Positions 7,512 to 62,442 of a DNA stretch of 64,000 nucleotides are shown here, piece after piece. Numbering within the stretch: position 1 is the stretch's first letter; each line of letters opens with the position of its first letter. The stretch is from the NCBI GenBank assembly GCA_963775345.1, contig CAVZIS010000006.1, forward strand, positions 344,786 through 408,785, read 5' to 3'. The notes beneath the pieces were generated by a model. That model was not told the DNA's origin, did not search any database, and saw only the letters and a program-made list of their open reading frames with translations. The DNA comes from Vicinamibacterales bacterium (GTDB lineage Bacteria; Acidobacteriota; Vicinamibacteria; Vicinamibacterales; JAMQPK01). A program made the position numbers and the translations under genes.

Positions 7512-7570
7512 GGTTCCCGGTTCCAAGTTCCAAGTTCCAAGTTCCGGTTCGGGTTCCGCGTTCCGGGTCC
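7512..7570. repeat. GGTTCC-type simple tandem repeat array
   Basis: ggttcccggttccaagttccaagttccaagttccggttcgggttccgcgttccgggtcc lies directly after the amidase stop. The same motif family recurs at 54634-54672 and, inverted, within 53494-53674. Confidence 0.85.
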
Positions 7571-7604
7571 CTCTCCTGCCGCATCATTGAAGCCGCGCCG
7601 GGCC

Positions 7605-7638
7605 AAAAAAAGGGGCAGGGAAGCTTGCTCCCCGCCCC
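7605..7638 (-). terminator. Rho-independent-type terminator for the minus-strand TBDR
   Basis: GC-rich hairpin GGGGCAGGGAAGCTTGCTCCCCGCCCC. On the minus strand it is followed by a run of 7 T (complement of A 7605-7611). Confidence 0.6.
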
Positions 7639-7693
7639 TTCGTGGATCTTCGTGCTCTTCGTGGACCTTCGTGTCCTTCGTGGATCTTCGTGT
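7638..7693. repeat. CTTCGTGGA-type 9-nt tandem repeat (about 6 units)
   Basis: cttcgtggat cttcgtgct cttcgtggac cttcgtgtc cttcgtggat cttcgtgtt lies between the TBDR stop (7694-7696) and its terminator hairpin. The same family recurs at 62408-62442. Confidence 0.85.
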
Positions 7694-10600
7694 TTAGAAC
7701 TTGAAATTCATCGCCAGTCTCGGGAACCGCCCCAGCATGATCGTCGTCGCGTTGCCGAGGCTGCCGCCGACGCTGTTGTTGGCGGCGCGGATCGCGTTCT
7801 GGTTGAGCACGTTGAAGATGTCGAACTGGAACGTCAGCACCTTGTTGTTGTGCCTGAAGTTCTTCTTCACGTTGATGTCGAGCTGGTTCCACCGATCGTA
7901 GAAGATCGATCCCGGCGGGTTCAAAATGAACGTCTGCGCCTGCGTGCGCTGGCCGTTCGGGAATCGCGCGGCCTCCGGCGCCCACGTAATGACGCGCTCC
8001 TGACCACCGTAGCTCTGCAGGATCGCGCCGAAGTCGATGCCGTACGGGAACGTGTAGTTTCCCGCGAACTTGAACTCCTGCAGGAACGGGAAGTCGAATT
8101 GCGTCTGATCGCAGTAGCGACCGCCCAGCGGCGCGTCCACTCCCGTCGTGGCGCTCGTCGGGTTGAACTGGCCTGTCGTCGTCGGGCCGTTCGGGTCGTC
8201 GTCGTTGTCGCACCACCGCTGGAGTGTGTGCTCGGCCGTCCAGCTTCCAAACAGCATCGCGCCGCCCGGGAGCCTGGTGTTGAACGACAACTCGAATCCC
8301 GTGTACAAGCGTGTCGTTGGTCGTATCGCTGCGATCGACGACGCCGACGTTGAAGACGCCCAGCTTCGCGGGATTCAGGTTGTAGACCGGAACCATTTCA
8401 CCGGCTTTCAGGACAGCCGCGACATCCGGGTCTCTCGAAACGTCGGGCATCGGCGTTTCGAAGCGCGTGTAGTCGTGACAGCGTGATGTTCGTCCGATCC
8501 TGGAACGCCAGATCCGCGATCTTGCGCTTGTAGAACATCGCGCCTACTGCCAGCCGCGGCGTCATCTGATGCTGCACGCCCGCCGTGAACTCGTCATTGT
8601 ATTGACGTGCGAGGTTCAGCGGCCTGCGGTCGGGGCGGTCGGGGTTGGCGAACGCCCCGCCGCTCGGGCTGAGGCCGATCTCGTTATCCTGCGCGACGCC
8701 GTCGCAGTCGGTCGGAAGGACGCGAATGCCAGGGCATAGGCCCGCGGCCCCGGACGGGTTATTGCTGCCTGCAACCAGATTGCGGTCGAGCCATGTCCGC
8801 ATCTCGCTGCGCTCGCCGGCCCTGCCGTACGCATTGGCCGCGATGTCGCCGTCGTAGTTCCGGTAGTACTTGCTCCAGCTCGTCTTCAGCGCCGTGCGGC
8901 CGTCGCCGAAGAGGTCGTACACCGCGCTGAACCGCGGCGAGTAGTCGGCGCCGAAATCAATCAGCCCCTTCTCCTCTTCGATGAATCGCGCCGGTGCAAA
9001 CCGGCCGGCCGCCATGCTGCTCTCATACATGCCTGTTTCGACCCACTGGACACGAAGGCCGGGGTTGATCGTCAGGCGCTGGATCGTCCAGCTGTCCTGC
9101 GCGAAAATGCCGATGTCGTAGGCGACATACGCAGGCTGGATGACCGGATTGTTGAAGACTTCCACCGTCGTGGGCTGATTGTTCACGTAGCGCTGCTGAA
9201 GGTGGCCGTTGCGCGTGTTCTTCCGCTGCCGTCCCGGCCCCCAGTCGTTCTCGATGCCCACTTTGATGTTGTGAGACCCGGTCACGTACGACGCGGCAAA
9301 CTTCGCCTCGTTGTGGACGCTTTCCTGCCGCTGCTCGCGGGTGGCATTCCACGTCGTGCAGCCGTTTGGCGCGGGCAGGTACGCATAGATGCACTTGTCG
9401 GGAAAGTTGCGATTGAGCGCCGTATCGCTCGTGGGCGCCGTCGCATACCATTCCGGGGTAAACGGAAAGTCGTGTGCCGTTCCTGCCGGCGTGCCGGACG
9501 GACTGCCGCCTCTCCAGTAGAACTGCGACCACGACCAGCCGGCTTCGACCAGCCATCGGTTGGTGACCGGCGCGGTCAATTTCATGTTGCCGATCGAGTG
9601 ATGTGCGTTCTTCGGGTCCCGCTGTTCGCCGGCGCGCGGGTCTGTGCCGGCGCCGATCGAGTGACCCTTCTTGTGCCACCACCGCTCGAGGAATCCGGCA
9701 ATCTTGTACTTCTCGGCGGCCTGCCACGTGAGACGGGTCGTCAGGCTGCGCACGTAGAGATCGTTGGTCGCTTTGTAGGTTGTGCCGTCGGGAGCCGTCA
9801 CGAACTTCGGCACGTTGGCAATAGTCGTCTCGGTCGACTGATGCCGCGCCGAGAAGATCCACCACAACTTGTCTCTCAGAATCGGACCGCCCAGCGATCC
9901 GGTGAAGGCCTCGAGGTGATCGATCCCGTTGGCGACGCTCAAGCTGCGCGCACGCAGCTCGTCATCGATGTTATCGGCGACCCATGTGCCCTTGGTTCCA
10001 CCCATGAAGGCCGAGCCGCTGAAGTTGTTGCCGCCGTCCTTCAGAATGCTGTTCAACCTGATGCCGCCGCCGCCCGTGTCCGCCGGAATGGCGGCCGTGC
10101 TGACCGTCATCTCCGACTGGATGGTGTCGTCCAGGAAGCTCAGCGATGTCCCCTCGTAGCTCTGGATCGACATGCCTTCGACGAGCTGATCGCCGTCGAG
10201 ACCACCGAGCCCGCGCGCGCGCAGGCCCACCTGTTCGGTCGTCTGCACGCCGCCCATGTCGGGCGTTCCAGGGCGCACCCCCGGGACGATGACGGCCAGC
10301 CCCATGACGTTGCGTGAAATCGGCAGCGAGTCGATGACATCGCGCGAGATGACCTGCGTGCGCGTTGCCTGCTGCACGTCGACCTGCGGCGCAGTGCCGG
10401 AGACGTTGATCGTCTCTTCAATCGAGCCGACCCTCATCTCGGCATTCACGGTTGCGGTGAAGTTCGACGGGAGAGTGATGCCTTCGCGCACCACGGTACC
10501 GAAGCCGGCGAGCGAGAAGGTGAGCTTGTAAGTGCCGGGCCGCATTTCAACGAACCGGTATCGTCCCTGGTTGTCGGTCACCGTTGTCATGGACCCTTCA

Positions 10601-10761
10601 ATCATCACGGGACTGGTGACTTCAACGCTGACGCCTGGAAGCACGCCGCCCGAGTCGTCCGTGAGCAGTCCAACAATCGCGCTCTGAGCCGAGGAAACCG
10701 CCGGCACCATGAGAAGCATGGCCAGACCGAGCAGGATCCCCAGACCGAGTCTCTGCTTCAT
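7694..10761 (-). pseudogene. TonB-dependent receptor (CarboxypepD_reg N-domain) with two frameshifts near the 3' third
   Basis: GGAGG lies just upstream of ATG 10761. Signal peptide, then GLLTDDSGGVLPGVSVEVTS...RYRF..PGTYKLTFSLAGF (CarboxypepD_reg), a plug/barrel and the terminal ...RLAMNFKF. The reading frame changes at about 8475-8482 and about 8305-8311; the middle piece DYTRFETPMPDVSRDPDVAAVLKAGEMVPVYNLNPAKLGVFNVG is in a third frame. Confidence 0.85.
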
Positions 10762-10925
10762 AACTCCTACCTCCGTAGTCGAGCTCATTGGAAAGGGTTG
10801 TGACCGGAAATTCTAGCGCGTCGCTTTTTGAAGTCAAACTAAACTGTCGTGTTTTCGCGAGCTTTACCGGTAACGGAATTTTGGATTTTATACGGTTTTT
10901 TGGGTTGGCCAGGCGGGGTGTCGTG

Positions 10926-11567
10926 ATGGGTTTCTATTCCCAGTATGTGCTACCTCGACTTATCGACTGTGTGATGAGCCATGAGGAAGCGATGCGGTTG
11001 CGGGCAGCGCACGTGCCTCCCGCGGCCGGTATCGTGCTCGAGGTCGGCATCGGCTCCGGCCTGAACCTTCCGTTCTACACGAGGGCCGTAACCCGTCTGT
11101 ACGGAGTGGATCCGTCAGCCGAGCTTCTTGCGATGGCCAGGCCGAAAGCAGACGGCGTCGGGTTTCCCGTCGAATGGCTGCAGCAGAAAGCCAACCACCT
11201 TCCGCTGAGCGATGACAGCGTCGACACCGGCGTCGTGACGTGGTCGTTGTGTTCGGTCGACGATCCCGCGGCGACACTCAGCGAGGTGCGACGCGTGCTC
11301 AAGTCCGGCGGCGCACTCATCTTTGTCGAGCACGGCCTGTCGCCTGACATCAGCGTTCGAACATGGCAGAATCGCCTCACGCCGGTCTGGCGTCATGTCG
11401 CCGGCGGCTGCCATCTCAATCGCAGGATCGATGATCTGATTCGCGATGCAGGTTTCCAAATCACCGAGTTACGCAAGGGTTATGTTCCGGGTCCCAGGGT
11501 CGGGGCTTACATGTATGCGGGAGTGGGGAAGAAAGGAAAAAGGAAGAAGGAACAAGGAAAAAAGTAG
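10926..11567 (+). CDS. Class I SAM-dependent methyltransferase (type 11-like)
   Basis: SAM motif VLEVGIGSGLNL plus LKSGGALIFVEH. The likely start is ATG 10926 (MGFYSQYVLPRL); the upstream ORF extension overlaps the divergent TBDR start. The C-terminal tail KKGKRKKEQGKK* is encoded by the polypurine repeat. Confidence 0.85.
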   Translation: MGFYSQYVLPRLIDCVMSHEEAMRLRAAHVPPAAGIVLEVGIGSGLNLPFYTRAVTRLYGVDPSAELLAMARPKADGVGFPVEWLQQKANHLPLSDDSVDTGVVTWSLCSVDDPAATLSEVRRVLKSGGALIFVEHGLSPDISVRTWQNRLTPVWRHVAGGCHLNRRIDDLIRDAGFQITELRKGYVPGPRVGAYMYAGVGKKGKRKKEQGKK

Positions 11568-11618
11568 AAAGTGAAAAGGAAAAAGGAAAAAGGAAAAGTG
11601 AAAAAAAGATTGGGAAGG
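11524..11618. repeat. Polypurine (GGAAAAA-type) mirror-repeat tract
   Basis: About 95 nt that is almost exclusively A/G on the + strand (ggaaaaaggaagaaggaacaaggaaaaaag...gaaaaggaaaaaggaaaaaggaaaag...). A second tract lies at 13479-13540. Confidence 0.9.
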
Positions 11619-11629
11619 CGGCGAGTGCG

Positions 11630-12229
11630 ATGGCGACGATTCGACTGGCAAACGAGGAAGACGCGGCTGCCATAGCGGCGATTTATGCGCCGTATTGCGA
11701 AACCAGCGCGATCTCGTTCGAGATGGTCGCCCCATCACCGGAAGAGATGGCGAAGCGGATCCGCGCGATAGGCGCGATCCGGCCGTGGTTGGTGCTCGAG
11801 GACGCCGCGACCCTGGCCGGCTACGCGTACGCCTCACCCCATCACGAGCGAGCTGCCTATCAGTGGTCTGTCAGCACGGCGATCTACGTGAGCAGTGCGC
11901 AACAGCGGCGTGGTGCCGGGCGGGCGCTCTATACGACGCTTTTCGAAGTGCTCCGCCTGCTCGGTTACTTCAGGGCGACCGCCGGCATCACGTTGCCCAA
12001 CCCCGCGAGCGTTGGCCTGCACGAAGCGTTTGGATTCACTCGGGTCGGCGTGTATCGTCACATCGGCCACAAGCTCGGGGCCTGGCATGACGTCGCCTGG
12101 TTCGAGGCCGAAATCCAGCCGGTGACACAGAATCCTGCACCGCCACGTTCGATTGCATCTCTGACGGAGGGAGCGGACTGGCGGGCGGCAGTCACCAAAG
12201 GGCTCGCGTGGTATGTCGAACATCCCTGA
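11630..12229 (+). CDS. GNAT N-acetyltransferase, phosphinothricin/methionine-sulfoximine acetyltransferase-like
   Basis: IRLANEEDAAAIAAIY...ETSAISFE...QQRRGAGRALYTTLFEVL...GLHEAFGF..VG is the typical PAT-subfamily pattern with the Q/RxxGxG/A acetyl-CoA motif. Confidence 0.8.
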   Translation: MATIRLANEEDAAAIAAIYAPYCETSAISFEMVAPSPEEMAKRIRAIGAIRPWLVLEDAATLAGYAYASPHHERAAYQWSVSTAIYVSSAQQRRGAGRALYTTLFEVLRLLGYFRATAGITLPNPASVGLHEAFGFTRVGVYRHIGHKLGAWHDVAWFEAEIQPVTQNPAPPRSIASLTEGADWRAAVTKGLAWYVEHP

Positions 12230-12854
12230 TGAGTTATCGGACTTCGTGCAGTCCGCTCTCATGCGGAGTGTGCCTCGCACCGAGGTCGAGACCGTTCTTC
12301 TGAAGGCAGGGTGGACGAAAGAGCAGACACGGAGCGCGCTGGCGGCCTTCGCCGATACGGATTTTCCGATTCCAGTTCCAAGACCCCGCCCGTATCTCGA
12401 CGCACGCGAAGCGTTCATGTACCTCGTGATGTTTTCCACACTGTATGTGAGCGCCTATCACCTTGGCAGCCTGCTCTTCGACATCATCAATACGACATTT
12501 CCCGATCCAGCGGATCCCTCCAGATCTGCTCAGTACGAGCGGCTGTCGATGCGCTGGTCGATTGCGTCGCTGATCGTGGCGTTTCCCGTCTTTCTCTACA
12601 CGTCGTGGCTGGTGGCGCGCGACCTGACGGCCGATCCGAACAAGCGGCACTCGAAAGTGAGGCGCTGGCTCACCTATCTGACGTTGTTCGTCGCGTCGAC
12701 CGTGCTCGTTGGCGACGTCATCACCTTGGTGTACAACCTGCTCGGCGGGGAGATCACGACGCGATTCCTCCTGAAGGTGCTCGTCGTCGCCTTCATCGCC
12801 GGCACCGTTTTTTGGTATTACCTGTCCGACATCAGGACCACTGAGAGGGATTAG
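12213..12854 (+). CDS. Integral membrane protein (DUF5671-like, 4 TM)
   Basis: A soluble N-domain is followed by four hydrophobic helices (FMYLVMFSTLYVSAY, WSIASLIVAFPVFLY, LTYLTLFVASTVLVG, LLKVLVVAFIAGTVFWYY). It overlaps the upstream GNAT by 17 nt. Confidence 0.6.
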   Translation: MSNIPDELSDFVQSALMRSVPRTEVETVLLKAGWTKEQTRSALAAFADTDFPIPVPRPRPYLDAREAFMYLVMFSTLYVSAYHLGSLLFDIINTTFPDPADPSRSAQYERLSMRWSIASLIVAFPVFLYTSWLVARDLTADPNKRHSKVRRWLTYLTLFVASTVLVGDVITLVYNLLGGEITTRFLLKVLVVAFIAGTVFWYYLSDIRTTERD

Positions 12855-12896
12855 GGACTAGGGATTAGGGATTGGGGATTGGGGATCAGGGATTAG
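12847..12896. repeat. TTAGGGA-type heptamer array (G-quadruplex motif)
   Basis: gggattagggactagggattagggattggggattggggatcagggattag: seven G3-4 tracts separated by 3-4 nt. The gene's TAG stop (12852-12854) is part of the array. A near-identical array lies at 55913-55951. Confidence 0.9.
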
Positions 12897-12995
12897 TTCA
12901 GCGACGGGTCCGGTTGAAACCGGACACATCGTAATGCTGCACTAAGCGGAAAGTCGTTACGAGATTGCACCGAGCGCGAAGCGCGAGGTGGCAGG

Positions 12996-13070: not shown

Positions 13071-13083
13071 AACTGAAAAAACA

Positions 13084-13539
13084 ATGCGAAATACCGTCAT
13101 CGTTGTCGCCGTTCTCGCCGTGCTCGGTGCGCTCGGGGGCGGCTTCTATCTCGTGGGCCCGCCCGCCGAAGAACGTGCCCGCCGGCTCGACGCGCGGCGC
13201 GAAAGCGATTTGCAGAGACTCCGGTTGGCGGCCGATTTGTACTGGACGCGCAACAGACGCCTTCCGGCCACGCTGGACGAGCTGGCAAAGGAAGCGGGGA
13301 CCCACGTCTTCTCTCGCGACCCGGAGACGGCCGAGACCTACGAGTACGCGGTGAAAGGCGCGAACTCGTACGAGCTGTGCGCGAGGTTTTCCCGCGAGTC
13401 GGAACTGCGCGGGGATTTCTGGTCTCATGCGTCAGGGAGGCACTGTTACGCGATTACCTGCCAGGGAAATAAAGCCGTAGGGAAGGGGAAAAGGAAAAAG
13501 GAAAAAAAGGAAAAAGTAAGAAGGAAAAGAAAGGGAAGA
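13084..13539 (+). CDS. Small membrane-anchored protein; no stop codon before the downstream amidase (in-frame through the polypurine tract)
   Basis: ATG 13084, TM helix VIVVAVLAVLGALGGGFYLV, then a domain of about 100 aa (..LPATLDELAKEAG...YEYAV...YELCARF). The frame stays open through GKGKRKKEKKEKVRRKRKGR into the amidase. Other frames of the tract contain TAA/TAG. Confidence 0.5.
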
Positions 13540-13540
13540 G
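13479..13540. repeat. Polypurine (GGAAAAA-type) tract bridging two ORFs
   Basis: tagggaaggggaaaaggaaaaaggaaaaaaaggaaaaagtaagaaggaaaagaaagggaagag includes an A7 run. It is related to the tract at 11524-11618. Confidence 0.9.
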
Positions 13541-15165
13541 TGTCACGTTTGCATCTGACGCTGATTGCGATTGCCGTCAGCGCTCTACAATTTTCGATGA
13601 TTGGACAAGCGCCGTCATTTTCGGTGGTCGAAGCGACCATTCCCGACATGCAGTCGGCGATGCGGCAGCAGCGCACGACCTCGCGCGCCATCGTTGAGCA
13701 GTATCTGGATCGCATCGCGACCTACGAGGCCGGTCTCAACGCCATCATCACTCTGAATCCGAAGGCGCTCGAGGAGGCGGACGCCCGTGACCGGGAGCGA
13801 CGCCAGGGGAAGGTTCGCGGGCCACTGCACGGCATCCCTATTGCGCTCAAGGACAACATCCACACGACCGACATGCCGACGACGGGAGGTGCGCAGGCCT
13901 TCGATCGATTCGTCCCTCCGTACGAGGCGACGCTGACACGGCATCTGCGCGAGGCGGGCGCCATCATCATTGCGAAAACCAACATGACCGAGCTCGCCAA
14001 CTGGGTGGCGTCCGGCATGCCGGCCAACTACAACTCGCTCGTCGGCTACGGGCTCAACCCGTACGATCCGCGACGGGATCCGCGCCCGGGGACCGATGAT
14101 GGACGGCCTGCTCTCAGCACCGGCGGGTCGAGCTCGGGTACGGGCACCGCCGCGAACTTCTGGGCAGCCAACGTCGGCACCGAGACGTCCGGATCGATCC
14201 TCAGCCCTGCCAACTGGAACAATCTCGTGGGCATCAAGCCGACCGTGGGCCGAATCAGCCGTCATGGAGTGATTCCGATCACTGCAGATCAGGACACCCC
14301 GGGGCCCATGGCCCGGACGGTGATCGATGCGGCGATCCTTCTCGGCGTGCTCGAAGGGCGAAACCCGGATCCCGACGATCCCGCAACGCGATTGTGCCCG
14401 CGCGTGCCGGACGGGGATTACGCGAAGTTCCTCGATCAAAAGGCGCTGGCCGGTGCGCGAATCGGCATCCCGCGAAGCGCCTTCTACGAGTTGCTGTCCG
14501 CAGACCGCGCACGGGTGATGGCCGACGCCATCGACGTGCTGAAGCAGAACGGCGCAATCGTCGTCGATCCCGTGTCGTTGTCTGCGGAGTTGCCTCCTGC
14601 GTGCTCGGGGCCGCCCGGTGCCAAAGGCGCGGACGAGAAGTGCTCTGTTGTGATGAAGTACGGCATGAAGCGCGACTTCGACAAATGGCTTGCCTCGCTC
14701 GGGCCAGGGGCGCCGGTGAAGACGCTGACAGAGTTGCGAAGATGGAACACCGACCACCAGTCCTCTGGTGCGCTCAAATACGGTCAGGCACAGCTCGACA
14801 ATTCCGATGAGATGGACCTCTATCGCGACAGAGCCCGATACCTTGCCGATCGAGAGCGCGACCTGAGATTGAGCGCGACCGAAGGCATCGATGCGGTCTT
14901 CAACGGTCATAAGCTCGATGCGCTGTTTGTGCCGGCCATGAACTACGACATGGCTGCCCGCGCCGGGTACCCTACGGTGATCGTGCCGTTCGGCTTTGTG
15001 CCGAATGCGCCGACACCGGCGTTTCCGGATGGATTCGCGGCGAAGCCCGCGCCTTTTGGCGTCAGCTTCACGGGAACCTCATGCAGCGAGCCACGGCTGA
15101 TCGCGCTGGCGTACGCGTTCGAGCAGGCGACCAAACGTCGCGTGCCGCCCGCAGATTTTCCGTGA
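13540..15165 (+). CDS. Amidase (amidase-signature family), secreted
   Basis: A candidate GTG 13540 is preceded by a purine-rich SD-like sequence. Signal-like VSRLHLTLIAIAVSALQF, then GIPIALKDNI, TTGGA, GGSSSGTG, GTETSGSILSPA. Paralogous to the amidase at 5783. Confidence 0.85.
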   Translation: MSRLHLTLIAIAVSALQFSMIGQAPSFSVVEATIPDMQSAMRQQRTTSRAIVEQYLDRIATYEAGLNAIITLNPKALEEADARDRERRQGKVRGPLHGIPIALKDNIHTTDMPTTGGAQAFDRFVPPYEATLTRHLREAGAIIIAKTNMTELANWVASGMPANYNSLVGYGLNPYDPRRDPRPGTDDGRPALSTGGSSSGTGTAANFWAANVGTETSGSILSPANWNNLVGIKPTVGRISRHGVIPITADQDTPGPMARTVIDAAILLGVLEGRNPDPDDPATRLCPRVPDGDYAKFLDQKALAGARIGIPRSAFYELLSADRARVMADAIDVLKQNGAIVVDPVSLSAELPPACSGPPGAKGADEKCSVVMKYGMKRDFDKWLASLGPGAPVKTLTELRRWNTDHQSSGALKYGQAQLDNSDEMDLYRDRARYLADRERDLRLSATEGIDAVFNGHKLDALFVPAMNYDMAARAGYPTVIVPFGFVPNAPTPAFPDGFAAKPAPFGVSFTGTSCSEPRLIALAYAFEQATKRRVPPADFP

Positions 15166-16295: not shown

Positions 16296-16337
16296 ATCGT
16301 CCATCGTCCATCGTCCATCGTCCATCGTCTCGATCGT
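16296..16337. repeat. CGTCCAT heptamer tandem repeat (4+ units)
   Basis: atcgtccatcgtccatcgtccatcgtccatcgtctcgatcgt fills the whole spacer between the hydrolase stop and the OsmC start. Confidence 0.9.
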
Positions 16338-17239: not shown

Positions 17240-17249
17240 TTATGCCGCC

Positions 17250-17400
17250 ATCGACGGCCGCTGGACGATCGACGCAGGACGATCGACGACAGCCGATCGA
17301 CGATCGACCATGGACGATGAACGGTCGACGATGGACGCTGGACGCTGGACGATCGACGATGGACGATGGACGATGGCCGATCGCCGATCAACCGTCCATC
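17250..17400. repeat. Degenerate ATGGACG/GATCGAC repeat block (reverse complement of the 16296 array), ending in an internal inverted copy
   Basis: ...ctggacgatcgacgcaggacgatcgacgac...gatggacgctggacgctggacgatcgacgatggacgatggacgatggccgatcgccgatcaaccgtccatcc. ATGGACG is the reverse complement of CGTCCAT. Confidence 0.85.
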
Positions 17401-17586
17401 CGGGAGACTCGTACCCGCACGAGACACACGCCAGATACACCCTGTTGGCCTCGAAGTGCATGTAGTCTTCGTGCCCGCGGATTGCACAGAGAACGCGTTG
17501 CAGAGAAACCATCTCGCCATATAAGACGCTGGTCGGGCACCTGAAGTTCCGTATCCCGAGGTTCCTATCCGCAATACACTGATTCG

Positions 17587-18066
17587 GTGGAGGTTGCCAT
17601 TCGCGAAGCGCTGCCGGATGAATCGCCGGCGCTGTTGCGCCTGATGCACGCCGCCTTCGAGGAATACTCCGGTGTGCTCGATCCGCCCTCGGCAGCGCAC
17701 ACAGAGACGTTGGAATCCGTGAACAGGCGCCTGTCCAGGGGCGGCGCTGTACTTGCCCTGTTGAACGATGACCCTGTAGGGTTCGCATTCTATGAGCCAC
17801 AGGGCACACATCTGTACTTCTGTCGTCTTTCCGTGCTGCCGGCTTTCCGCAGGCGAGGCATCGGACGTGCGTTGATCGAGCACGTCGAGTCACGCGCTCG
17901 GGAGACCGGCTTCTCTGGCGTGCGGCTCGGCGTACGCGCTCAGTTGCCTCAGATGCAGGCGACATACGAACGCCTGGGATATCAGGTGACGAAGTACATG
18001 ACGCACGAGGGGTACGAGAAGCCCACCTACATGTTCATGGAGAAGGCGGTAGCTGGTAGCCGGTAG
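17587..18066 (+). CDS. GNAT family N-acetyltransferase
   Basis: 159 aa with the acetyl-CoA motif LSVLPAFRRRGIGRALIEHVE. The last codons (AVAGSR*) and the stop lie inside the GGTAGC repeat. Confidence 0.85.
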   Translation: MEVAIREALPDESPALLRLMHAAFEEYSGVLDPPSAAHTETLESVNRRLSRGGAVLALLNDDPVGFAFYEPQGTHLYFCRLSVLPAFRRRGIGRALIEHVESRARETGFSGVRLGVRAQLPQMQATYERLGYQVTKYMTHEGYEKPTYMFMEKAVAGSR

Positions 18067-18115
18067 CCGGTAGCGAGGGTATCCGGCCACCGGCTACCAG
18101 CTACCAGCTACCAGC
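18048..18115 (+). terminator. Long hairpin built from GGTAGC / GCTACC repeats
   Basis: The left arm ggtagctggtagccggtagccggtagc pairs imperfectly with the right arm cggctaccagctaccagctaccagc. The stem is about 25 bp and the loop about 16 nt, with no clear T-tract. Confidence 0.5.
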
Positions 18116-18133
18116 TAGTATGCTAGTCGCATC

Positions 18134-19739: not shown

Positions 19740-19790
19740 GGCAGGGCTGAAGCCCTGCGCTACTGCGTTGTGCTGAAGCCCTGCGCTACC
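19740..19790. repeat. REP-like palindromic element, two units
   Basis: GGCAGGGCTGAAGCCCTGCGCTAC followed by a truncated unit GCTGAAGCCCTGCGCTACC. The same family, in both orientations, occurs at 51931-52085. Confidence 0.8.
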
Positions 19791-29119: not shown

Positions 29120-29144
29120 CAGTCCAACTCGAGATGGAGGATTT

Positions 29145-30300: not shown

Positions 30301-30348
30301 CCGATCTCGGAGTGCACTGAAGCGATCGGCCCCCTGGCAGAGTAGGGA

Positions 30349-45438: not shown

Positions 45439-45485
45439 CCGATCTCGGAGTGCACTGAAGCGATCGGCCCCTGGCAGAGTAGGGA

Positions 45486-51930: not shown

Positions 51931-52085
51931 GTAGCGGACTTGGGCAGGCCTGAAAGGCCTGCGCTACCGATGTCGGCTTCTAATCGGGCAGGCCTAAAAG
52001 GCCTGCGCTACCGAGGTCCTTCACCGGTAGCGCAGGGCTTCAGCCCTGCCGCCGATCTGCGGTAGCGCGGGGCTTCAGCCCTGCC
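51931..52085. repeat. Cluster of four REP-like palindromic units (two forward, two inverted)
   Basis: GGGCAGGCCTGAAAGGCCTGCGCTACC (51942-51968), GGGCAGGCCTAAAAGGCCTGCGCTACC (51986-52012), GGTAGCGCAGGGCTTCAGCCCTGCC (52026-52050) and GGTAGCGCGGGGCTTCAGCCCTGCC (52061-52085). Confidence 0.85.
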
Positions 52086-52128
52086 ATCAGGCCGAACGCG
52101 ATAAGGAGCAATCCGATGCGGCGAGTAC

Positions 52129-53478
52129 TTGTTCCCGGCGGTGTTCTTGTTCATCATCGCTCTCGCGATAACCCTGCCTTCCGGTGTTGCCGTATCCGCC
52201 GCAGTGCCCGAGACGCCCACTTTCAACAAGGACGTTCTGTCGATTCTTCAAAAGAACTGTCAGGAGTGTCATCGGCCCGGCGCGATTGCCCCGATGTCCT
52301 TCATGACCTACCAGGAGACCCGCCCATACGCCCGGGCGATCTCCAAGGCGGTCGTCAGCAGGACGATGCCGCCGTGGTTTGCAGATCCGACGGTTGGTCA
52401 TTTTGAGAACACCAAGCTGCTGAGCGATGAACAGATCGCTACGTTGGTCGCGTGGGCCGACAAGGGCGCGGTTGAGGGCGATGCGAAGGACAAGCCTGCG
52501 CCTGTCGATTTTGCCGACGGATGGACGATTGGCAAGCCCGACATCATCGTGCAGATGCCGAAGACCATCGAGCTTCCGGCGACCGGCATCATCGATCAGT
52601 CAAATGTGCTCGTCTACGCGCATTTCGAAAAGGACATGTGGGTGAAAGCCGCCCAGGTGCTGCCCGGCAACGCGAAGGTCGTGCATCACATGAAGGCGTG
52701 GATCCGTCCGCCCGGTTCCGCGTGGATGGCGGATGCTCCCGAAGGGGTTCTCTACAATCCACCGCGTGGCGCGGGAGGACCGGCGCCGCAACCGGTCGCA
52801 CTGTCGGCGACGGGATATAAACCCGCTCAGGACATTCTTGCGAAGTACAACCCCGGTGTTGCGGGCCAGGAGTTCACAACGGGAAACGCCGCCAAATTCA
52901 TCGCCGCCGGCTCCGACATCGTCTTCGAGGCGCACTATACGACGACGGGGAAACCCGAAACAGATAGATCGTCGGTCGGCATCGTGCTGGCCGATGGACC
53001 ACCGACGCAACGGCATCTCACGACGACGGCGATCAGCGAGAGGAATTTCGAGATTCCGGCGGGCGATCCGCACTATGAAATCAGAGGCGAAGTCACCGTC
53101 GAGGAGCCCGCGAAGCTCGTCTGGATCCAGCCGCACATGCACTATCGCGGCACGTACTACGAGTTGAAGGTCGTGTACCCGGATGGTAAGGAAACGATGA
53201 TCGTGCGCGTTCCGAACTACCGGTTCGATTGGCAATTGGGTTACGAGCTGGCCGAGCCGGTGGATTTGCCGAAGGGCTCGAAGCTGATGACCGTTTCGTA
53301 CTACGACAATTCATCAGCCAACAGATTCAATCCCGATCCCGCCAGGAACGTGCGGTACGGTGCCCAGAGCTGGGATGAGATGAATGTCAGCTTCATCGGT
53401 ATTTTGATCGACGCGAAAGGAGACCCCGGGAGAGCGTTCCGCCGACGAGGGGCGCCGGTTCGCCAGGAGGTGGAGTAG
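52129..53478 (+). CDS. Cytochrome-c-domain / PHM-like (copper type II ascorbate-dependent monooxygenase-like) fusion protein, secreted
   Basis: Heme-c motif C44-Q-E-C-H48 in an N-domain (ILQKNCQECHRPG..MPPWFADP). PHM-type ligand pattern H186-H187, H269, H336-x-H338, M418. The ORF opens with TTG 52129. A better-placed ATG 52116 (AAGGAG at 52103-52108) is in another frame, which implies either a 1-nt indel at 52119-52129 or the TTG start. Confidence 0.75.
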   Translation: MFPAVFLFIIALAITLPSGVAVSAAVPETPTFNKDVLSILQKNCQECHRPGAIAPMSFMTYQETRPYARAISKAVVSRTMPPWFADPTVGHFENTKLLSDEQIATLVAWADKGAVEGDAKDKPAPVDFADGWTIGKPDIIVQMPKTIELPATGIIDQSNVLVYAHFEKDMWVKAAQVLPGNAKVVHHMKAWIRPPGSAWMADAPEGVLYNPPRGAGGPAPQPVALSATGYKPAQDILAKYNPGVAGQEFTTGNAAKFIAAGSDIVFEAHYTTTGKPETDRSSVGIVLADGPPTQRHLTTTAISERNFEIPAGDPHYEIRGEVTVEEPAKLVWIQPHMHYRGTYYELKVVYPDGKETMIVRVPNYRFDWQLGYELAEPVDLPKGSKLMTVSYYDNSSANRFNPDPARNVRYGAQSWDEMNVSFIGILIDAKGDPGRAFRRRGAPVRQEVE

Positions 53479-53493
53479 ACCGATCCGAGAATA

Positions 53494-53674
53494 GCGGTTC
53501 TAGGTTCTGCGTGCTGGGTTCCTGGTTTCTGGGTTCTGTCGGCGCCGTCGCGCGAGCCGCTAACCCGAACCGTAGAACCCCGACCCGCCGAACCCTGAAC
53601 CCCGAACCGTAGAACCCCGAACCGGCGAACCCCGAGCCGGCGAACCCAGCACTCCAGAACCCAGCACTCAGAAC
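53494..53674. repeat. About 180-nt inverted simple-repeat structure (GGTTC arrays facing GAACC arrays)
   Basis: The left arm gcggttctaggttctgcgtgctgggttcctggtttctggguuctg-like (53494-53538) faces a long right arm of gaacc/gaaccc units (53563-53674) that includes cagaacccagcactcagaaccag. Confidence 0.8.
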
Positions 53675-53676
53675 CA

Positions 53677-54633
53677 GTGAACCGTATGCTAGGATGCCGC
53701 CCACTTATGAGAACCATGAGAGTTGCGGTGCTTGCGGCGCTGTTCATGACCACGCTTACCGCGCGCCAGGCGATTCCGCAGGCGACGGGTCCGAACGTCG
53801 CACGCGATTTGCGTGGGGCGGTCGATATCCACGTTCATTCCGACCCCGACAAGGTTCCGCGCTCCCTGGACGGGCTCGAAGCGGCCCGGCTGGCCAAAGA
53901 GAAAGGCATGCGCGCGATCGTACTGAAGAGCCACTACGATCCGACAGCGGGTCTGGCTCTGCTGGCCCGCAAGCAGGCGCCCGGCATCGAGGTGTTCGGC
54001 GGAATCGATCTGAATCTTCCCGTCGGCGGCATGAACGTTCATGCGGTCGAGAACATGGTCCAGACCAACGGCCACTGGGGGCGGGTCGTGTGGATGTCTA
54101 CGTTCGATTCCGAGAATCAGGCTCGCGCGGGCAAGACGCCGCGTCCGTTCGTGCGCGTCTCGGCAAACGGCGAGCTGCTGCCGGAGACGAAGGCAGTCAT
54201 CGCGGCGATCGCCAAGCACAACCTGGTCATGGCGAGCGGTCACGTCTCGGCTGCAGAGACGCTGATGATGTTCGAAGAAGCCCGCAAGCTCGGCGTCCGC
54301 GGCATGGTCGCCACTCACGGAATGTCCCCGCCGACCTCGCTCACGGTGGAACAAGCCAGGAAGGCGACAGCGCTCGGCGCATTCATCGAGTTCTGTGGCG
54401 GAACGCTCGAAACGCCCACCGGGCAAGCCAAGGTCGATCGCTTCGCGGATGACATCCGTCAGGTTGGCGTCGATCACGCGATTATCTCTTCGGATCTCGG
54501 TCAGGGAGGCAATCCGCTGCCTGCCGACGGGCTCGCGACATTCATCGACGCGCTGCGAAAGAAAGGCTTTACCGATCAGGAGCTCGATCGGATCGCGAAG
54601 CAGAACCCTGCCAGGCTTCTCGGTCTTCCATAG
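53677..54633 (+). CDS. Secreted TIM-barrel metal-dependent hydrolase-like protein (amidohydrolase superfamily / DUF6282-like)
   Basis: Signal peptide MRVAVLAALFMTTLTA. Then DIHVHSDPD (HxH metal motif), later SGHVS and ATHG His motifs, and SSDLGQ (Asp). The family name is from memory. Confidence 0.5.
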   Translation: MNRMLGCRPLMRTMRVAVLAALFMTTLTARQAIPQATGPNVARDLRGAVDIHVHSDPDKVPRSLDGLEAARLAKEKGMRAIVLKSHYDPTAGLALLARKQAPGIEVFGGIDLNLPVGGMNVHAVENMVQTNGHWGRVVWMSTFDSENQARAGKTPRPFVRVSANGELLPETKAVIAAIAKHNLVMASGHVSAAETLMMFEEARKLGVRGMVATHGMSPPTSLTVEQARKATALGAFIEFCGGTLETPTGQAKVDRFADDIRQVGVDHAIISSDLGQGGNPLPADGLATFIDALRKKGFTDQELDRIAKQNPARLLGLP

Positions 54634-54672
54634 GTTCCCGGTTCCCGGTTCCGGGTTCCGGATTCCAGATTC
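54634..54672. repeat. GGTTCC-type simple tandem repeat
   Basis: ggttcccggttcccggttccgggttccggattccagattc starts at the upstream gene's TAG stop. Same family as 7512-7570. Confidence 0.9.
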
Positions 54673-54686
54673 GAGGAGAGTTGCTG

Positions 54687-55915
54687 ATGAGGCGAAGGAT
54701 ATTCCTGCTTTGCGTTGTCGTCGCAGTGTCGGCTGGCATGAGCGCGGCGCAGCATGCTGTCGATCGCCTTGTCCTGTATGCAGCGCTCGGTTCAGATCTG
54801 GCGACCTATGATGTAGACCTCGCTCATGCGGCGCTGGCCAGGCGATCGAGCGTCACGCTGCCGTTTGCGGTCCAGTATGCGTGGCCGCATCCGTCGAAGA
54901 AATTCCTGTATGTCGCCTGGAGCAACGGCATGCAGGGCGATCGTCACGGCATCACGGTCTATCGAGTTGATGCCGCTGGAGCCCTCGCGCCCCATGGACC
55001 ATCGATCGAGATTCGCCATCGGCCCGTGCATCTGACTCTGGACGCCAACGCGACGCATGTGCTCGTCGCCTACAACAACCCGAGCGGCCTGAGCGTGCAC
55101 AGCCTCAACGCCGACGGCACGCTCGGCAGCGAAGTCAAACAACCCGGATCGATCGATGGCGGGATCTACGCGCATCAGATCCGCGTGCATCCATCGAACA
55201 AGATGGTCGTCATGGTCACGCGCGGGAACGGCCCGACGCCAGCCGCCCGGAGGATCCGGGCGCGCTCAAGATTTTCGGCTACAACGATGGAATTCTCGAA
55301 AGCCGTCAGTCCATCGCCCCCAACGGCGGATTCGGATATCAGCCCCGGCACGTCGACTTTCACCCGTCGCAGCCGTGGATGTATCTCAACCTCGAACGGC
55401 AGAATCAGCTGCAGGTTTATCGCACCGTCCGCGGGGAATCCGTAGAGCCCGCTGCGCTCTTTACAAGGGACACGCTCGACAATCAGGCTGCCAGCAAGCC
55501 CGCTCAAATGACCGGCGCCATTCACGTGCATCCAAACGGGCGGTTCGTCTATGTCAGCAATCGCGCCAGCGGCACGATCGACGTCGGGGCAAAGCCAATC
55601 TGGGAGGGCGGTGAAAACACCATCGGTGTCTACGCCGTGGATCAGAAAACGGGCGAGCCGACGAGAATCCAGAACATCGACAGCGGCGGGATGCATGCGC
55701 GAACGTTCGCGCTCGATGATGGCGGCCGCATTCTCGTTGCTGCGAATCAGAACGCCGTGACCAGGCGTGACGGTGCGACCGAAACCAGAGTGCCTGCGTC
55801 GCTCGCGGCGTTCCGTATCGCGGCGGACGGCAAGCTGTCGTTTGTGCGGAAGTACGATGTGGAAACGGGGCAGGGGCGGAGTCTCATGTGGGTCGGACTC
55901 CTGACGCTGAACTAG
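54687..55915 (+). CDS. Lactonase-family 7-bladed beta-propeller (6-phosphogluconolactonase-like), secreted; one frameshift
   Basis: GAGGAG, then ATG 54687 (MRRRIFLLCVVVAVSAGMSAAQ). The N-half (to about 55245) and the C-half (EDPGALKIFGYNDGILESRQSIAPNGGFGYQPRHVDFHPSQPWMYLNLER...HVHPNGRFVYVSNR) are in different frames. The break is near gccgcccgg at 55240-55250. Confidence 0.75.
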
Positions 55916-55951
55916 GAACTAGGGATTAGGGATTAGGGATTGGGGATTAGG
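55913..55951. repeat. TTAGGGA-type heptamer array (G-quadruplex motif), second locus
   Basis: taggaactagggattagggattagggattggggattagg begins with the lactonase TAG stop. Same family as 12847-12896. Confidence 0.9.
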
Positions 55952-55954
55952 TGA

Positions 55955-56587: not shown

Positions 56588-56611
56588 GTTCCGGAGCCCG
56601 GAGCCTGACGT

Positions 56612-57415: not shown

Positions 57416-57533
57416 ACGGCCTCCTGTCAGAACCATGGAGGCGGGTCTTGCTGAGAGACCCGCCCTACTCAAGACGAAGTGCAAGGCCCGCCCTGCGCGA
57501 TATGCCCGGGAAGTATAGCGCTATACTCCACGC

Positions 57534-59529: not shown

Positions 59530-59580
59530 CACTCGTTATTGCGCAACTGAAGGTGCGCGTGGGGCGGTAACATCAAATCG

Positions 59581-61748
59581 ATGCAATCGATGTTTCGAAG
59601 ACTGCCGTTGGTCTGCCTCGTCGGGCTGGTGGCAGCCGTCGCACTCACCCGTGCGCAGGCGCCAAGTCCCGAGATCACGTTCAAGGTCGAGGTGAACTAC
59701 GTCGAAGAGGATGTCCGCGTTGTCGACGCGAGCGGCCGCTTCGTCCGCGGATTGAAACAGGAGGATTTTCAGATTTCAGAAGATGGAAAGCCGCAGAGGA
59801 TTCAGACGTTCGGCATGGTCGACATTCCCGTCAGACCCGCGCGCCCGCCGCTCTATCTCGGGCCGGAGGCGATCCCCATCGATCCCGACGTGTCATCGAA
59901 CAGGCAGGCACTCGATGGGCGGCTCTACCTGATTGTGCTGGACGATTACCACGTCGCGCCTTTGAGGACGCAGAACGCCAGGAACCTCGCGCGACGGTTT
60001 GTTCTCGAAAAGCTGGGCCCCGACGACCAGGCCGCCGTCGTGGTCACCAGCGGGCTGCTCGACGCGACACAGGAGTTCACGTCCAATCGCCGGCTGCTCC
60101 TCGAGGCCATCGAACGCTTCACCGGCCAGAAAGTCCCTCTGCGGCCGTCGAGAAGCTGACGCGCCGCGCGCGGGAAGAGGTGGGCGAGCGCGCGAGACTC
60201 CAGGAAGGTCAGCAGCCCAAAGACACCATCACGCTGCAGGTCGACGACCCGTACGCCACCGAGCGCACCTTCAAAGCGCGCGCCTCCTTGAACTCGTTGC
60301 GCCGCATCGCCGAGTGGATGGCGGCCGTGCAGGGGAGACGGAAGGCGGTCGTCTTCATCAGCGAGGGCGTCGATTTCAATATCTACGACATCTTCGTCGG
60401 GGCCGATCGGACGGCGTTTCAAATGGAGAACTTCAACCTGATGCAGGAGGAGACCTGGGAAGCCATTTCGGCCGCCTCTCGCAGCAACGTCCAGATCTAT
60501 CCGATCGACCCGCGCGGTCTCTACACCATGGCTCCCGAGCAGATTGAGCTTCAAGGGATGCCCCTCGGCGGCGGCATGCGACTCGGTCCCAACACGCTGC
60601 AGCAGGAGCTGCAGACCTCGCAAATGAATCTTCGACAGCTTGCGGAGCAGACCGGCGGAGTTGCCGCGGTAGGCGCTGCCGATCTCGACCGGGCTCTGGA
60701 CCGCATCGTCGATGAGAACAGCTCGTACTATGTCCTCGGCTACTACTCGAGCAACGAGCGGCGCGACGGACGGCTCCGGAACATCGCCGTGAAAGTTGCG
60801 GGGTATCCCGACGCGCAGGTGAGCTACCGCAAGCGCTATGCCGCGCCGCGCGGGCGCGCGTCGCGATCGACGGCAGAACGCAAGGGAACTGACGCTGCCG
60901 CCGGGTTGACCGCCGAGCTCATGCAGGCGATGGCGACGCCGCTGCCGAGAACGGGCTTGCAGCTGCGAGTCACAGCGGTTCCGCGAAAAGGCGTCGTCGA
61001 CAGATCGAGCAGTCTCGATGTCCTCATCGATATCGCTGGCAGGGATCTCACGTTTGTACGCAAAGGCGATGTGTTCGCCAACCGCCTTTCGTTCTCAGTT
61101 GGCGTGTTCAACAAGGAAGGCAAGGCTGTCATCACCGAGCGTCCGGATGCGGCGCTGAATCTCCGACCCGAGACCCATGCGCGGGTCGCCGAGCATGGCG
61201 TACGGGTGTTGGTGCCGCTTTCAATCCGCCCGGGGCGCTATCAGCTTCGAGTAGCGGCCCAGGACAGTTCAAAGACCCGTCAGGGAACCGTACATCTCGA
61301 TCTGGACGTGCTCGACTTCACACAGCCGGCGCTCGCACTCAGCGGCATCGCGTTGGCCTCGTCGGCCGATCGTTCGATGTACATTCCGCCCCGGCCCGGA
61401 TTCGATCCGTTTGACGGCTTCCTGGCCGGCACGCTGACGACGCTCCGTGAATTTCCCGCCAGGAGTGAAGTGGCCGCGTTCGTGGAAGTGTACGTGAACC
61501 GGCCTGCGCCGGTACATCGTCTCGATATCACGTCGACGGTGAGAACCGATGACGGTCGCATCGTATTTGCCGACAGCGAAGAGCGATCGACCGAAGACTT
61601 GCACGGAACGGCAGGTGCGTTCGGCTACGCCGTGCGTGTTCCGATCGCCGACTGGGCTCCCGGACGATACACGCTCACGATCGACGCGAAAGCCCGTCTG
61701 GAGACTGGGAGCCAGGTTTCGCGAGTGATCGAATTTCGCGTTATTTGA
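59581..61748 (+). CDS. VWFA-related (acidobacterial-type VWA) domain protein with long C-terminal extension; one frameshift
   Basis: TFKVEVNYVEEDVRVVDASGRFVRGLKQEDFQISEDGKPQRIQTF, then LYLIVLDD...DQAAVVVTS...FT, continuing across a frame change at about 60134-60138 into GRRKAVVFISEGVD. The VWA fold spans the two ORFs. Confidence 0.75.
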
Positions 61749-62208
61749 TTCTGAACGTTCCGTCCGGTCGTTTTTCGCGATGAGCTGCATGGCAGCTGCT
61801 GCAGATCTTGTTGAGGCGTTCCTGCGCGAGGGTGGCTGCGCTCGGGGAGTGCAGATCGATCACTGCGAGCGCCTTCGAAATGTTTGCCGCCTCCGCCAGC
61901 GCTTCGCGGGACAACGCGATCGCGCCCTTCGTTTTCTTCTCCTCCCAGAACGCGAGGACGTTCGCAAGGATCTCCTCGAGGCGCGCCGCCTCGTCGCGGG
62001 CTTTCATCGTCGTCTCGAAGAGAAGGACGCGCTCGAGATCTGCGCGCGCAACCTCTTCGATGTTGTTCCGGAGGCTGGTGTCGAGCGCGTTCAGCTCGCG
62101 CATCGCCTTGGCGTAATCCTGCTCGGTCTTCAGGGGCGCCGATCCCTGCTGCGCCGACACTCCGCTCACAAGAGTCAGAATGATTATCACGGAGCGCATA
62201 ATGCGCAT
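61741..62208 (-). CDS. Cytochrome c' (class II, four-helix-bundle) -like protein
   Basis: Signal peptide MRIMRSVIIILTLVSGVSAQ, a helical body and a C-terminal heme motif C-S-S-C-H (KICSSCHAAH). It overlaps the VWA gene's stop by 8 nt (convergent). Confidence 0.7.
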   Translation of the reverse strand: MRIMRSVIIILTLVSGVSAQQGSAPLKTEQDYAKAMRELNALDTSLRNNIEEVARADLERVLLFETTMKARDEAARLEEILANVLAFWEEKKTKGAIALSREALAEAANISKALAVIDLHSPSAATLAQERLNKICSSCHAAHREKRPDGTFRIK

Positions 62209-62407
62209 TGTACAGTCGTGCCGGCCCACACAGAAACAGGAGAGAGGAGCTTAGGAGCCCGAACGCCCATAACCGTTCATCACAGAGACCACCGAGCAAC
62301 GACATCGACTTCGCGCCGTCGGCCGCTCGCGGCCCACGAAGTCGATGCACGACTTCACAGAGTCTTCTGACGCAATCCACGGAGCGCATCACATAGCCTT
62401 CGTGCTT

Positions 62408-62442
62408 CGTCCTTCGTGGACCTTCGTGTGGGTTTCTGTATC
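62408..62442. repeat. CTTCGTG-type tandem repeat, second locus
   Basis: ccttcgtgcttcgtccttcgtggaccttcgtgtgg lies in the divergent spacer between the cytochrome c' and SnoaL-like genes. Same family as 7638-7693. Confidence 0.85.

Follow-up and report, generated by a model that had tools for sequence, protein, structure and literature searches.

Seven-Nucleotide Tandem Repeat Arrays Beside Stop Codons in a Clade of Vicinamibacterales

Why are the gaps between intact genes of a soil bacterium filled with short tandem repeats, and why do the same motifs return at distant gaps? The question is raised by a 64,000-nt stretch of DNA from a Vicinamibacterales bacterium (GCA_963775345.1, contig CAVZIS010000006.1, positions 344,786-408,785, forward strand), which was analyzed as a whole and is called the window here. 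The order ranks with the most abundant bacteria of soil, and hardly any of its members have been cultured. The genes of the window are typical for Acidobacteriota (a Ser/Thr kinase with PD40 repeats, CarboxypepD_reg outer-membrane barrels), and the relatives of its DUF6282 protein (53707-54633) in species-representative genomes come nearly all from metagenome-assembled genomes (MAGs) named 'Vicinamibacterales bacterium', at 56-80% identity. The arrays are real, highly significant and a lineage-wide trait in a clade of Vicinamibacterales. We favor the reading, with a probability of roughly 0.6, that they are lineage-typical long simple-sequence repeats (SSRs) with 7-8-nt units, the acidobacterial counterpart of the cyanobacterial short tandemly repeated repetitive (STRR) sequences and of the heptamer repeats of Xanthomonas and Nostoc.

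Arrays in the window were found with Tandem Repeats Finder (TRF) and checked by direct reading of the sequence, counting units of 5-11 nt in at least three copies. The window contains 16 such arrays, whereas 100 dinucleotide-preserving shuffles yield 0.8 on average and never more than 4. Every array placed by a preliminary description of this DNA was recovered, although its units required correction: the basic unit is 7 nt in 13 of the 16 arrays rather than 6-9 nt, GGTTCC is truly GGTTCCN, and CTTCGTGGA is a compound unit of about 19 nt. A tandem-repeat census was run on about 35 related contigs (344 kb, non-redundant), among them MAG loci and further metagenome contigs, of which 30 were fetched from the JGI, ENA and NCBI collections, and both enrichment at gene 3' ends and recurring families were found beyond the window. 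Genes were called for this purpose with a simple codon-bias caller trained on the window, whose stops are reliable. The 118 arrays of this set (median length 31 nt, median copy number 4.1) have units of 7 nt (n=78), 8 nt (n=27), 6 nt (n=8) or 9 nt (n=5) and comprise 78 distinct units; among 129 arrays having at least three copies, the period mode is 7 nt in 79. Eight of ten Vicinamibacterales MAG loci have 2.4-7.2 arrays per 10 kb; the density is about zero in two more distant ones (L008, L010) and near zero in two distant outgroup loci (L013, L014).

All arrays placed by the preliminary description occupy spacers or gene 3' ends, and in the whole set nearly all lie in spacers or on gene edges (107/118); those within gene cores are mostly weak, have a 6-nt unit, or are there through wrong start calls. 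Arrays are present in 61 of 175 same-direction and 11 of 29 convergent spacers but in only 4 of 32 divergent ones (Fisher p=0.013), an occupancy of 35-38% for tandem and convergent spacers versus 12% for divergent spacers. Within the 61 occupied tandem spacers, arrays start a median of 2 nt past the stop codon, the array begins within 5 nt of the stop in 34 cases and overlaps it in 26, in agreement with the earlier remark that arrays start at or contain the upstream stop, and the array is nearer the upstream stop than the next start in 46 cases versus 15. The stop itself is TAG in 32 of 54 genes preceding an array versus 96 of 281 other genes (p=0.0007). TAG occurs within the sense-strand unit of 18 of 54 arrays versus 6 of 54 on the antisense strand, and of all triplets in the 78 distinct units TAG/CTA shows the strongest enrichment (22 observed versus 6.7 expected). 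The GTAG head of repetitive extragenic palindromic (REP) elements was considered as the driver of this enrichment and rejected, since TAG is enriched generally (TAGG, TAGA, TTAG, GTAG). Sponges for CsrA-type GGA binding were also set aside, as GGA is absent from the enriched triplets.

Arrays that enter a gene do so at its end. The methyltransferase ends in the array-encoded tail VGKKGKRKKEQGKK (11527-11567), and the array supplies its stop; gene 17587-18066 ends in AVAGSR followed by the stop, encoded by the array at 18047-18066; and a small minus-strand zinc-ribbon frame (17240-17590) reads through the 17262-17388 array, which encodes about 48 residues in place of the roughly 25-residue C-terminus of its relatives. 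A short repetitive C-terminal tail with its stop codon is thus array-encoded in three window genes. The preliminary description had suggested contingency loci, which in the classical sense find no support here: copy number varies between close relatives, but the arrays sit after or on stop codons and lie neither in reading frames nor between promoter hexamers, and where an array enters a gene it alters only a short C-terminal tail.

The relatives share a common gene order (outer-membrane protein (OMP), methyltransferase, GNAT, DUF5671, amidase, (esterase), OsmC, DUF6265, GNAT, cyclase, DUF6282, lactonase, CMD), and comparison of orthologous spacers reveals rapid replacement of the arrays. After the DUF6282 stop, the window carries TAG(GTTCCS)n in about 6 copies, whereas the spacer of L001, whose protein is 94% identical, has about 3 copies of the GGTTCCS motif. 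At the same position, L027 has (TAGGTTC)10, L006 has (GATCGTGGG)6, L017 has (GATTGGSA)6 and L019 has (TAGTTTC)3, while L007, L015 and L020 have only 10-17 nt and no array. Units can be traced to unexpanded sequence in relatives: the L006 array (AGAGCAG)6 matches GGTGAGAGCTGC in the array-free spacer of L005, and the L006 array (GATCGTGGG)n matches TAGGAGATCGC in the array-free spacer of L020. Near-identical contigs also differ, with ATGGTCA in 3 copies in L016 and 5 in L043 between identical flanks. The comparison of repeat number across strains that had been proposed was carried out on relatives, and array length differs between L016 and L043 (3 vs 5) and between the window and L001 (about 6 vs 3). 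Exact-protein look-ups for five window proteins, seeking contigs of the same strain, returned no match on record, and copy-number polymorphism therefore rests on the 94%-identical and more distant relatives. Because orthologous spacers differ in motif, copy number and presence, and because units trace to a local seed, most arrays probably arise in place by slippage. One array is more persistent. The lactonase-CMD spacer holds a GGGATT array in the window, L015, L007, L012 and L022, with copy number varying across the five genomes, and this array keeps 6 of 7 unit positions while the synonymous divergence (dS) of the neighboring gene is 0.7-1.05; L003, L005, L021 and L041 have other repeat families in this spacer.

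Two elements between the genes that are not arrays are conserved. The divergent OMP-methyltransferase spacer has no array and is conserved in sequence (160-230 nt, seven genomes). A perfect 10-bp palindrome, TTACCGGTAA, at 10864-10873 in the window is conserved there in all seven and is likely a candidate binding site for a regulator. Upstream of the DUF6282 gene, an extended -10-like element (TGCTAGGAT, window 53687-53698; TGTTAGCAT in relatives) is conserved and ends 12-13 nt before the start codon, implying an almost leaderless mRNA, and the arrays upstream of this gene stop just short of the element.

The preliminary description had also stated that motif families are reused at distant loci, and this holds. 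Three heptamers are each used identically at two places in the window, GGAAAAA (11527, 13482), AGGGATT (12846, 55920) and ATCGTCC/TGGACGA (16296, 17262), where random intergenic 7-mers would give 0.11 pairs with an identical canonical 7-mer (P=0.0005); GGTTCCN (7510, 53496, 54633) and CTTCGTG (7638, 62398) recur with small differences. Over all loci, 15 within-locus pairs share an identical unit versus 0.29 expected, and the whole set contains 94 such pairs versus 4.0 expected, a figure that orthology explains in part. Several families occupy non-orthologous spacers of different genomes (CTACCAG/GGTAGCC, TGGACGA, GGAAAGT, CGAAAAA, GAGTCNNN and CACGAAG). The clearest example is CACGAAGATCCACGAAG, a compound unit of 17 nt that chance would produce 0.01 times per 64 kb and that is found in four kinds of spacer: in the window (7638-7692 and 62412), L001, L006 and, twice, L047. 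The window and L047 both have it after the stop of an outer-membrane protein gene and ahead of a canonical terminator, even though the proteins concerned share only 37% identity.

Arrays are absent from one large part of the window. Relative to the shared gene order, an extra 35 kb (18.1-53.5 kb) separates the second GNAT gene of the window from DUF6282; it is composed of repeated cassettes of TonB-type receptor, beta-propeller and Rieske genes, with arrays at both borders. No 6-9-nt array lies within 18.2-53.4 kb, a gap that includes and exceeds the 21-51 kb first described as array-free, while the flanking DNA has about one array per 1-3 kb. The same cassettes are array-free in L045 (98.5% identical, 12 kb) and L046 (83% identical, 21 kb); L046 has a (CAGCTAC)4.9 array upstream of its DHDPS gene, as in the window. 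Together, the 68 kb of cassette DNA (window, L045, L046) contains zero arrays where about 23 would be expected at 118 per 344 kb, and G+C content is about 58% (window 18134-53478, L045, L046) versus 61-64% in the flanks. A recent foreign island is not supported as an explanation, for L045 and L046 carry the same array-free cassettes, and the absence of arrays is thus a conserved property of the cassette region and not simply a matter of recent import.

We hypothesize that a short local seed would first be duplicated, after which slipped-strand mispairing would lengthen or shorten the repeat, strongly favoring steps of 7 nt. Such a seed would often be a stop codon plus the next few bases, a purine stretch resembling a ribosome-binding site, or one arm of an existing hairpin. 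Arrays would survive only in stretches that encode nothing else, which reach from the stop codon as far as the next promoter or ribosome-binding site downstream; they may also run into the 3' end of a gene and give it a short repetitive tail and a stop codon. Expansion of both arms of a hairpin would produce a long repeat-built stem-loop, and such stem-loops appear to be selected as 3'-end structures for insulation or mRNA 3'-end protection, whereas single arrays are probably close to neutral filler. The reuse of motifs at unrelated spacers could reflect the transfer of sequence from one array to another by gene conversion or template switching, or a far greater tendency of a few motifs to expand; alternatively, the motifs themselves may be selected. 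The features expected of the long-SSR class (5-11-nt units, predominantly heptamers) are all observed: excess over chance, exclusion from coding DNA and copy-number variation between relatives.

Several observations weigh against this reading. First, local slippage alone cannot account for families at non-orthologous sites, notably CACGAAGATCCACGAAG. Second, 68 kb of DNA is array-free despite many spacers, which a uniform mutational process does not predict. Third, the preference for TAG over TGA is unexplained. Fourth, retention of the GGGATT array at a dS of about 1 hints at constraint. Finally, the gene caller behind the census is crude, and the start positions it gives are only approximate.

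Of the competing explanations, the one that survives best is that the arrays are putative functional cis-elements at the RNA or DNA level, serving in 3' or 5' untranslated regions as multivalent platforms for sequence-specific single-strand-binding proteins or, for the GGGATT family, as G-quadruplex formers. Motif families would then mirror a small set of binding specificities shared across the lineage, as would fit both the identical families at non-orthologous spacers of different genomes and the GGGATT array kept across a dS of about 1. The GGGATT arrays are G-rich on the sense strand directly past the stop in all but one of the spacers seen, like the reported G-quadruplex-forming GGGGAYT and GGGAATC repeats, and arrays of the CACGAAG family mostly have that sequence on the sense strand of the mRNA. 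G exceeds C on the sense strand of arrays in 48 versus 22 cases; however, this strand bias is not above that of array-free spacers (66 vs 42), and the purine bias on the array sense strand (47 vs 28) is likewise equaled there. Families replace one another freely at orthologous spacers, or the array is lost entirely; many families are found in both orientations, and no binding protein is known. We consider this account possible, though on balance unlikely.

A bolder proposal, which we regard as rather doubtful, is an active, motif-aware process that would seed and copy 7-8-nt families between spacers and build self-renewing hairpins at gene ends, so that array length would become a heritable and quickly tunable setting for insulation, 3'-end stability or translational coupling. 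Passive slippage leaves unexplained the preference for TAG in the units, the position of CACGAAGATCCACGAAG between the stop and the terminator of unrelated OMP genes, and the 68 kb without arrays.

The preliminary description had suggested terminators or insulators, a function that clustering at gene 3' ends and depletion between divergent genes would suit, and which can be retained for a minority of arrays only. In a strict test, 17 of 118 arrays (about 15%) have an inverted partner within 200 nt, versus 4 of 118 in a displaced control, and such pairs can form very stable hairpins. In the window, the inverted arrays (GGTAGCN) x4 and (GCTACCA) x4 at 18047-18117, with GGTAGCC at 18047-18074 and GCTACCA at 18089-18117, form the left border of the array-free block. 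The first arm includes the TAG stop of gene 17587-18066, and the region 18040-18125 folds at -56.7 kcal/mol (z = -7.0). The right border is formed by the inverted arrays (GGTTCTN) x6 and (GAACCSC/CCGAACC) about x11 at 53496-53683, past the stop of gene 52129-53478 and ahead of the promoter-like TGCTAGGAT that precedes the DUF6282 gene. Here the GGTTCC(N) family occupies 53496-53538 and its complement GAACC 53562-53683, and the region 53490-53639 folds with z = -2.8. The inverted arrays upstream of DUF6282 in L001 reach -58.5 kcal/mol (z = -6.9), and hairpins at this site use different motifs in each genome (GGTTCY/GAACC, GACGCAGA/TCTGCGTC, TCGTAGG/CCTACGA), directly ahead of the conserved promoter-like element. 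The convergent CMD/g56612 spacer behaves similarly: a (NNCAGGAG)3 plus (CTCCTGNN)3 hairpin is common to six genomes with compensatory double changes at 4 of 25 pairs, and across the relatives as a whole a hairpin is kept though it is made of three unrelated repeat motifs, including those of L015 (z = -4.0) and L038 (z = -3.9). A repeat-built hairpin is also present at another spacer in L048 (z = -3.0). In the window itself this 25-nt spacer has only a weak (CCGGAGC) x2.1 repeat (56591-56605), where relatives have long repeat-built hairpins.

As a general account of the arrays, however, termination or insulation is improbable. The remaining arrays, without an inverted partner, fold no better than shuffles (z = -0.6 to -1.9, with GGAAAAA at 0 kcal/mol), a U-tract or T-run is absent from all array-built hairpins, and a scan with an intrinsic-terminator consensus gave no match in any array-bearing spacer. 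The arrays are not of the intrinsic-terminator type, a GC-rich stem-loop with a U-tract behind it. Canonical hairpin-plus-T-run terminators instead stand beside arrays as separate elements (7603-7637; L047). Rho-loading sites were rejected, because the sense strand of arrays is G-rich and not C-rich, as were structure-free linkers, the folding z-scores of single arrays being ordinary.

A small mobile element, either similar to miniature inverted-repeat transposable elements or REPs or spread by a dedicated enzyme, might have placed ready-made repeat blocks in the spacers, with the arrays as its footprints or cargo, but this is very unlikely. An identical 17-19-nt compound unit at unrelated spacers, REP-like palindromes headed by GTAG in the same spacers, and the 15 within-locus pairs versus 0.29 expected are what such an element might leave. 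Filled and empty orthologous sites, however, show the unit growing from local sequence with no clean insertion, no conserved flanks or terminal repeats are common to the arrays, and no transposase or RAYT-like gene was seen in the window, of which not all genes were scanned. Sequencing or assembly artefacts are hardly credible as a source, for although several split genes in the window hint at indel errors, independently assembled contigs from several collections (L001, L015-L027, L043) and MAG loci have arrays at the same orthologous spacers.

The other arrays of the window can be followed from left to right; all arrays of the window, those above included, are given on the plus strand except the one at 7638-7692, which lies on the minus strand. 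In a convergent spacer, a GGTTCCN array of about 8.7 copies (7510-7568) starts 18 nt past the TAG stop of the amidase gene 5783-7492. Between this array and the next, and not itself an array, is the GC-rich hairpin AAAAAAAGGGGCAGGGAAGCTTGCTCCCCGCCCCTT (7603-7637), with an A-run before it and TT after it, which looks like a two-way intrinsic terminator; the layout of array and then terminator is also present in L047. The compound repeat CACGAAGATCCACGAAGG (7638-7692), reported by TRF with a 19-nt period and 3 copies and reading CTTCGTG on the plus strand, begins right after the stop of a minus-strand outer-membrane protein gene (7694-8308 plus 8398-10788). Eleven copies of GGAAAAA (11527-11605) overlap the methyltransferase 3' end and end 24 nt before the GNAT gene start at 11630. 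An AGGGATT array of 7.3 copies (12846-12896) includes the TAG stop of the DUF5671 gene (12213-12854) and fills the whole spacer, its G-rich sense strand having seven GGG or GGGG runs; adjoining it is the small palindrome GTCCGGTTGAAACCGGAC (12908-12925), related to a dispersed GTAG-headed hairpin of the relatives. A second GGAAAAA-type polypurine array (13482-13541) precedes the second amidase gene, in which homology begins near 13690. At 16296-16329, 4.9 perfect copies of ATCGTCC start immediately past the TAG that ends the AXE1-like esterase gene and stop 8 nt ahead of the OsmC ATG, and the reverse complement of this array, 17 copies of TGGACGA/TCGACGA, follows the DUF6265 stop at 17262-17388.

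To the right of the cassette block, about 5-6 copies of GGTTCCS (54633-54672) extend from the last base (G) of the DUF6282 TAG stop to 14 nt before the lactonase ATG. The next spacer holds (GAACTAG) x2 followed by (TAGGGAT) x4.6 (55909-55951), which includes the lactonase TAG stop and ends 3 nt before the CMD-family gene start; its (T)TAGGGA part spans 55920-55951. Finally, a CTTCGTG array of the same family as 7638-7692 is located at 62398-62428, in the divergent spacer between 61741-62208 on the minus strand and 62518/62537 on the plus strand, and L047 carries this family at the equivalent spacer. An Rfam scan of the window and four relatives identified no known RNA family, and no tRNA genes were found.

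Further observations concern the rearrangement and condition of this DNA. The preliminary description had named recombination substrates as a possible role, for which the evidence is only suggestive: arrays stand at both borders of the 35-kb block, and inverted arrays flank some genes. In the window, the OsmC and DUF6265 genes lie between the inverted ATCGTCC and TGGACGA arrays. Inverted GAAAGTA/TACTTTC arrays bracket about 470 bp in L006 (14726-15297), L012 (14738-15292) and L003 (14710-15154), a segment that seems to hold a small minus-strand gene inside a plus-strand cluster. Such bracketing arrays may be traces of inversion or insertion between arrays. REP-like GTAG-headed palindromes are a separate feature: GTAGCGCAGGGCTTCAGCCCTGCC occurs near both ends of the array-free block (19740-19763, 52027-52050 and 52059-52091), and GTAGTGTCCGGCTTTAGCCGGAC occurs in L005, L012, L015, L016, L022 and L043, often sharing spacers with arrays. 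Within the cassette block, 29200-31700 and 44340-46830 are a segmental duplication, 15.1 kb apart and 93-98% identical, and older paralogous cassette copies lie at spacings of about 6 kb. Several genes fall into two frames each but are single and intact in relatives: a VWFA-like gene at 59581-61748 (717-aa homologues), the outer-membrane barrel at 7694-10788, the lactonase at 54687-55915, and a beta-propeller at 28809-30300 that is intact in the 98.5%-identical L045. These split genes suggest indel sequencing errors or recent pseudogenes, and they may lie behind the decayed look that the 21-51 kb region had been given.

If a third of Vicinamibacterales spacers hold unstable 7-8-nt arrays, these would be ready strain-typing markers for metagenomes. 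They would also cause assemblies to break and starts and stops to be miscalled; array-encoded tails are added to several of the genes described above. The lineage would be a third, phylogenetically distant one in which to ask why heptamers proliferate beside stop codons, a question that dates from the description of STRR sequences. The repeat-built hairpins, whose sequence turns over while their structure stays, offer a natural experiment on the amount of sequence that a stem-loop at a 3' end requires. Full-text literature searches returned nothing on such repeats in Vicinamibacteria or Acidobacteria, and as far as we found the trait, known from cyanobacteria and Xanthomonas, has not been described in Acidobacteriota. 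The earlier judgment that arrays of this kind are unusual for bacterial intergenic DNA was nevertheless overstated, the same having been published for those two groups.

Among known repeat systems, REP elements and bacterial interspersed mosaic elements (BIMEs) are intergenic, often 3' untranslated or intercistronic, and consist of single 20-40-nt palindromes that form hairpins. Mycobacterial interspersed repetitive units (MIRUs) are 40-100 bp long, overlap neighboring stop and start codons, and vary in copy number. Unlike both, the arrays described here are direct tandem 7-mers, with REP-like palindromes as separate elements beside them; REP/BIME identity was rejected for this reason and because no RAYT gene was seen among the window genes scanned. 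CRISPR was rejected as well, the units being contiguous and 7-8 nt long versus repeats of 24-48 nt with unique spacers. Cyanobacterial STRR sequences, reportedly described by Mazel et al. in 1990, are a closer likeness, sharing heptanucleotide units and some hairpins. Several defined STRR families are reused across intergenic loci, a likeness that may extend to the arrays, whose family reuse is seen within 344 kb. The STRR units CCCCAGT, TTGGTCA and CAACAGT are not among our 78 distinct units; unit sequences and taxon differ. STRR sequences are 7-bp repeat families that can form intergenic hairpins, and roles in transcript stability or translational coupling have been proposed for them (PMC2670836).

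As relayed by two later papers, the survey of Mrazek et al. (2007) found an excess of heptanucleotide repeats in prokaryotes, attributed it to polymerase slippage, and placed Burkholderia, cyanobacteria, actinobacteria and Xanthomonas among the top genomes (PMC4679880; PMC4692102). So far as that second-hand account goes, the arrays resemble these long SSRs of 5-11-nt units in their heptamer excess, in the exclusion from coding DNA of units that are not multiples of 3, and in the slippage proposed for both. In marine Beggiatoaceae, TAACTGA forms intergenic direct repeats of 2-6 copies in hundreds of sets per genome, and the repeats are also scattered in cyanobacteria and Bacteroidetes (MacGregor, 2015; PMC4679880). 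In that system, unlike ours, one motif dominates, and its copies mostly lie directly ahead of start codons and not at stops.

The heptamers GGGAATC of Xanthomonas and GGGGA(T/C)T of Nostoc, typically in about 4 copies, prefer spacers between same-direction genes, are depleted in coding DNA and between divergent genes, often occur as inverted pairs, and keep their positions while varying in length between related species (Rehm et al., 2015; PMC4692102). The Vicinamibacterales arrays share the 7-nt tandem unit, the spacer preference, the inverted pairs, and the conserved position with variable length, and the AGGGATT/GGGGATT arrays of the window (12846, 55920) match the Nostoc unit. Only these two (12846-12896 and 55920-55951) have a GGGNATC or GGGGAYT unit with at least four G-tracts, which the other families do not. 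Unlike the repeats of Xanthomonas and Nostoc, the arrays of this acidobacterial lineage draw on many unrelated families (78 units in 118 arrays), most of them without G-tracts, and commonly use 8-nt units.

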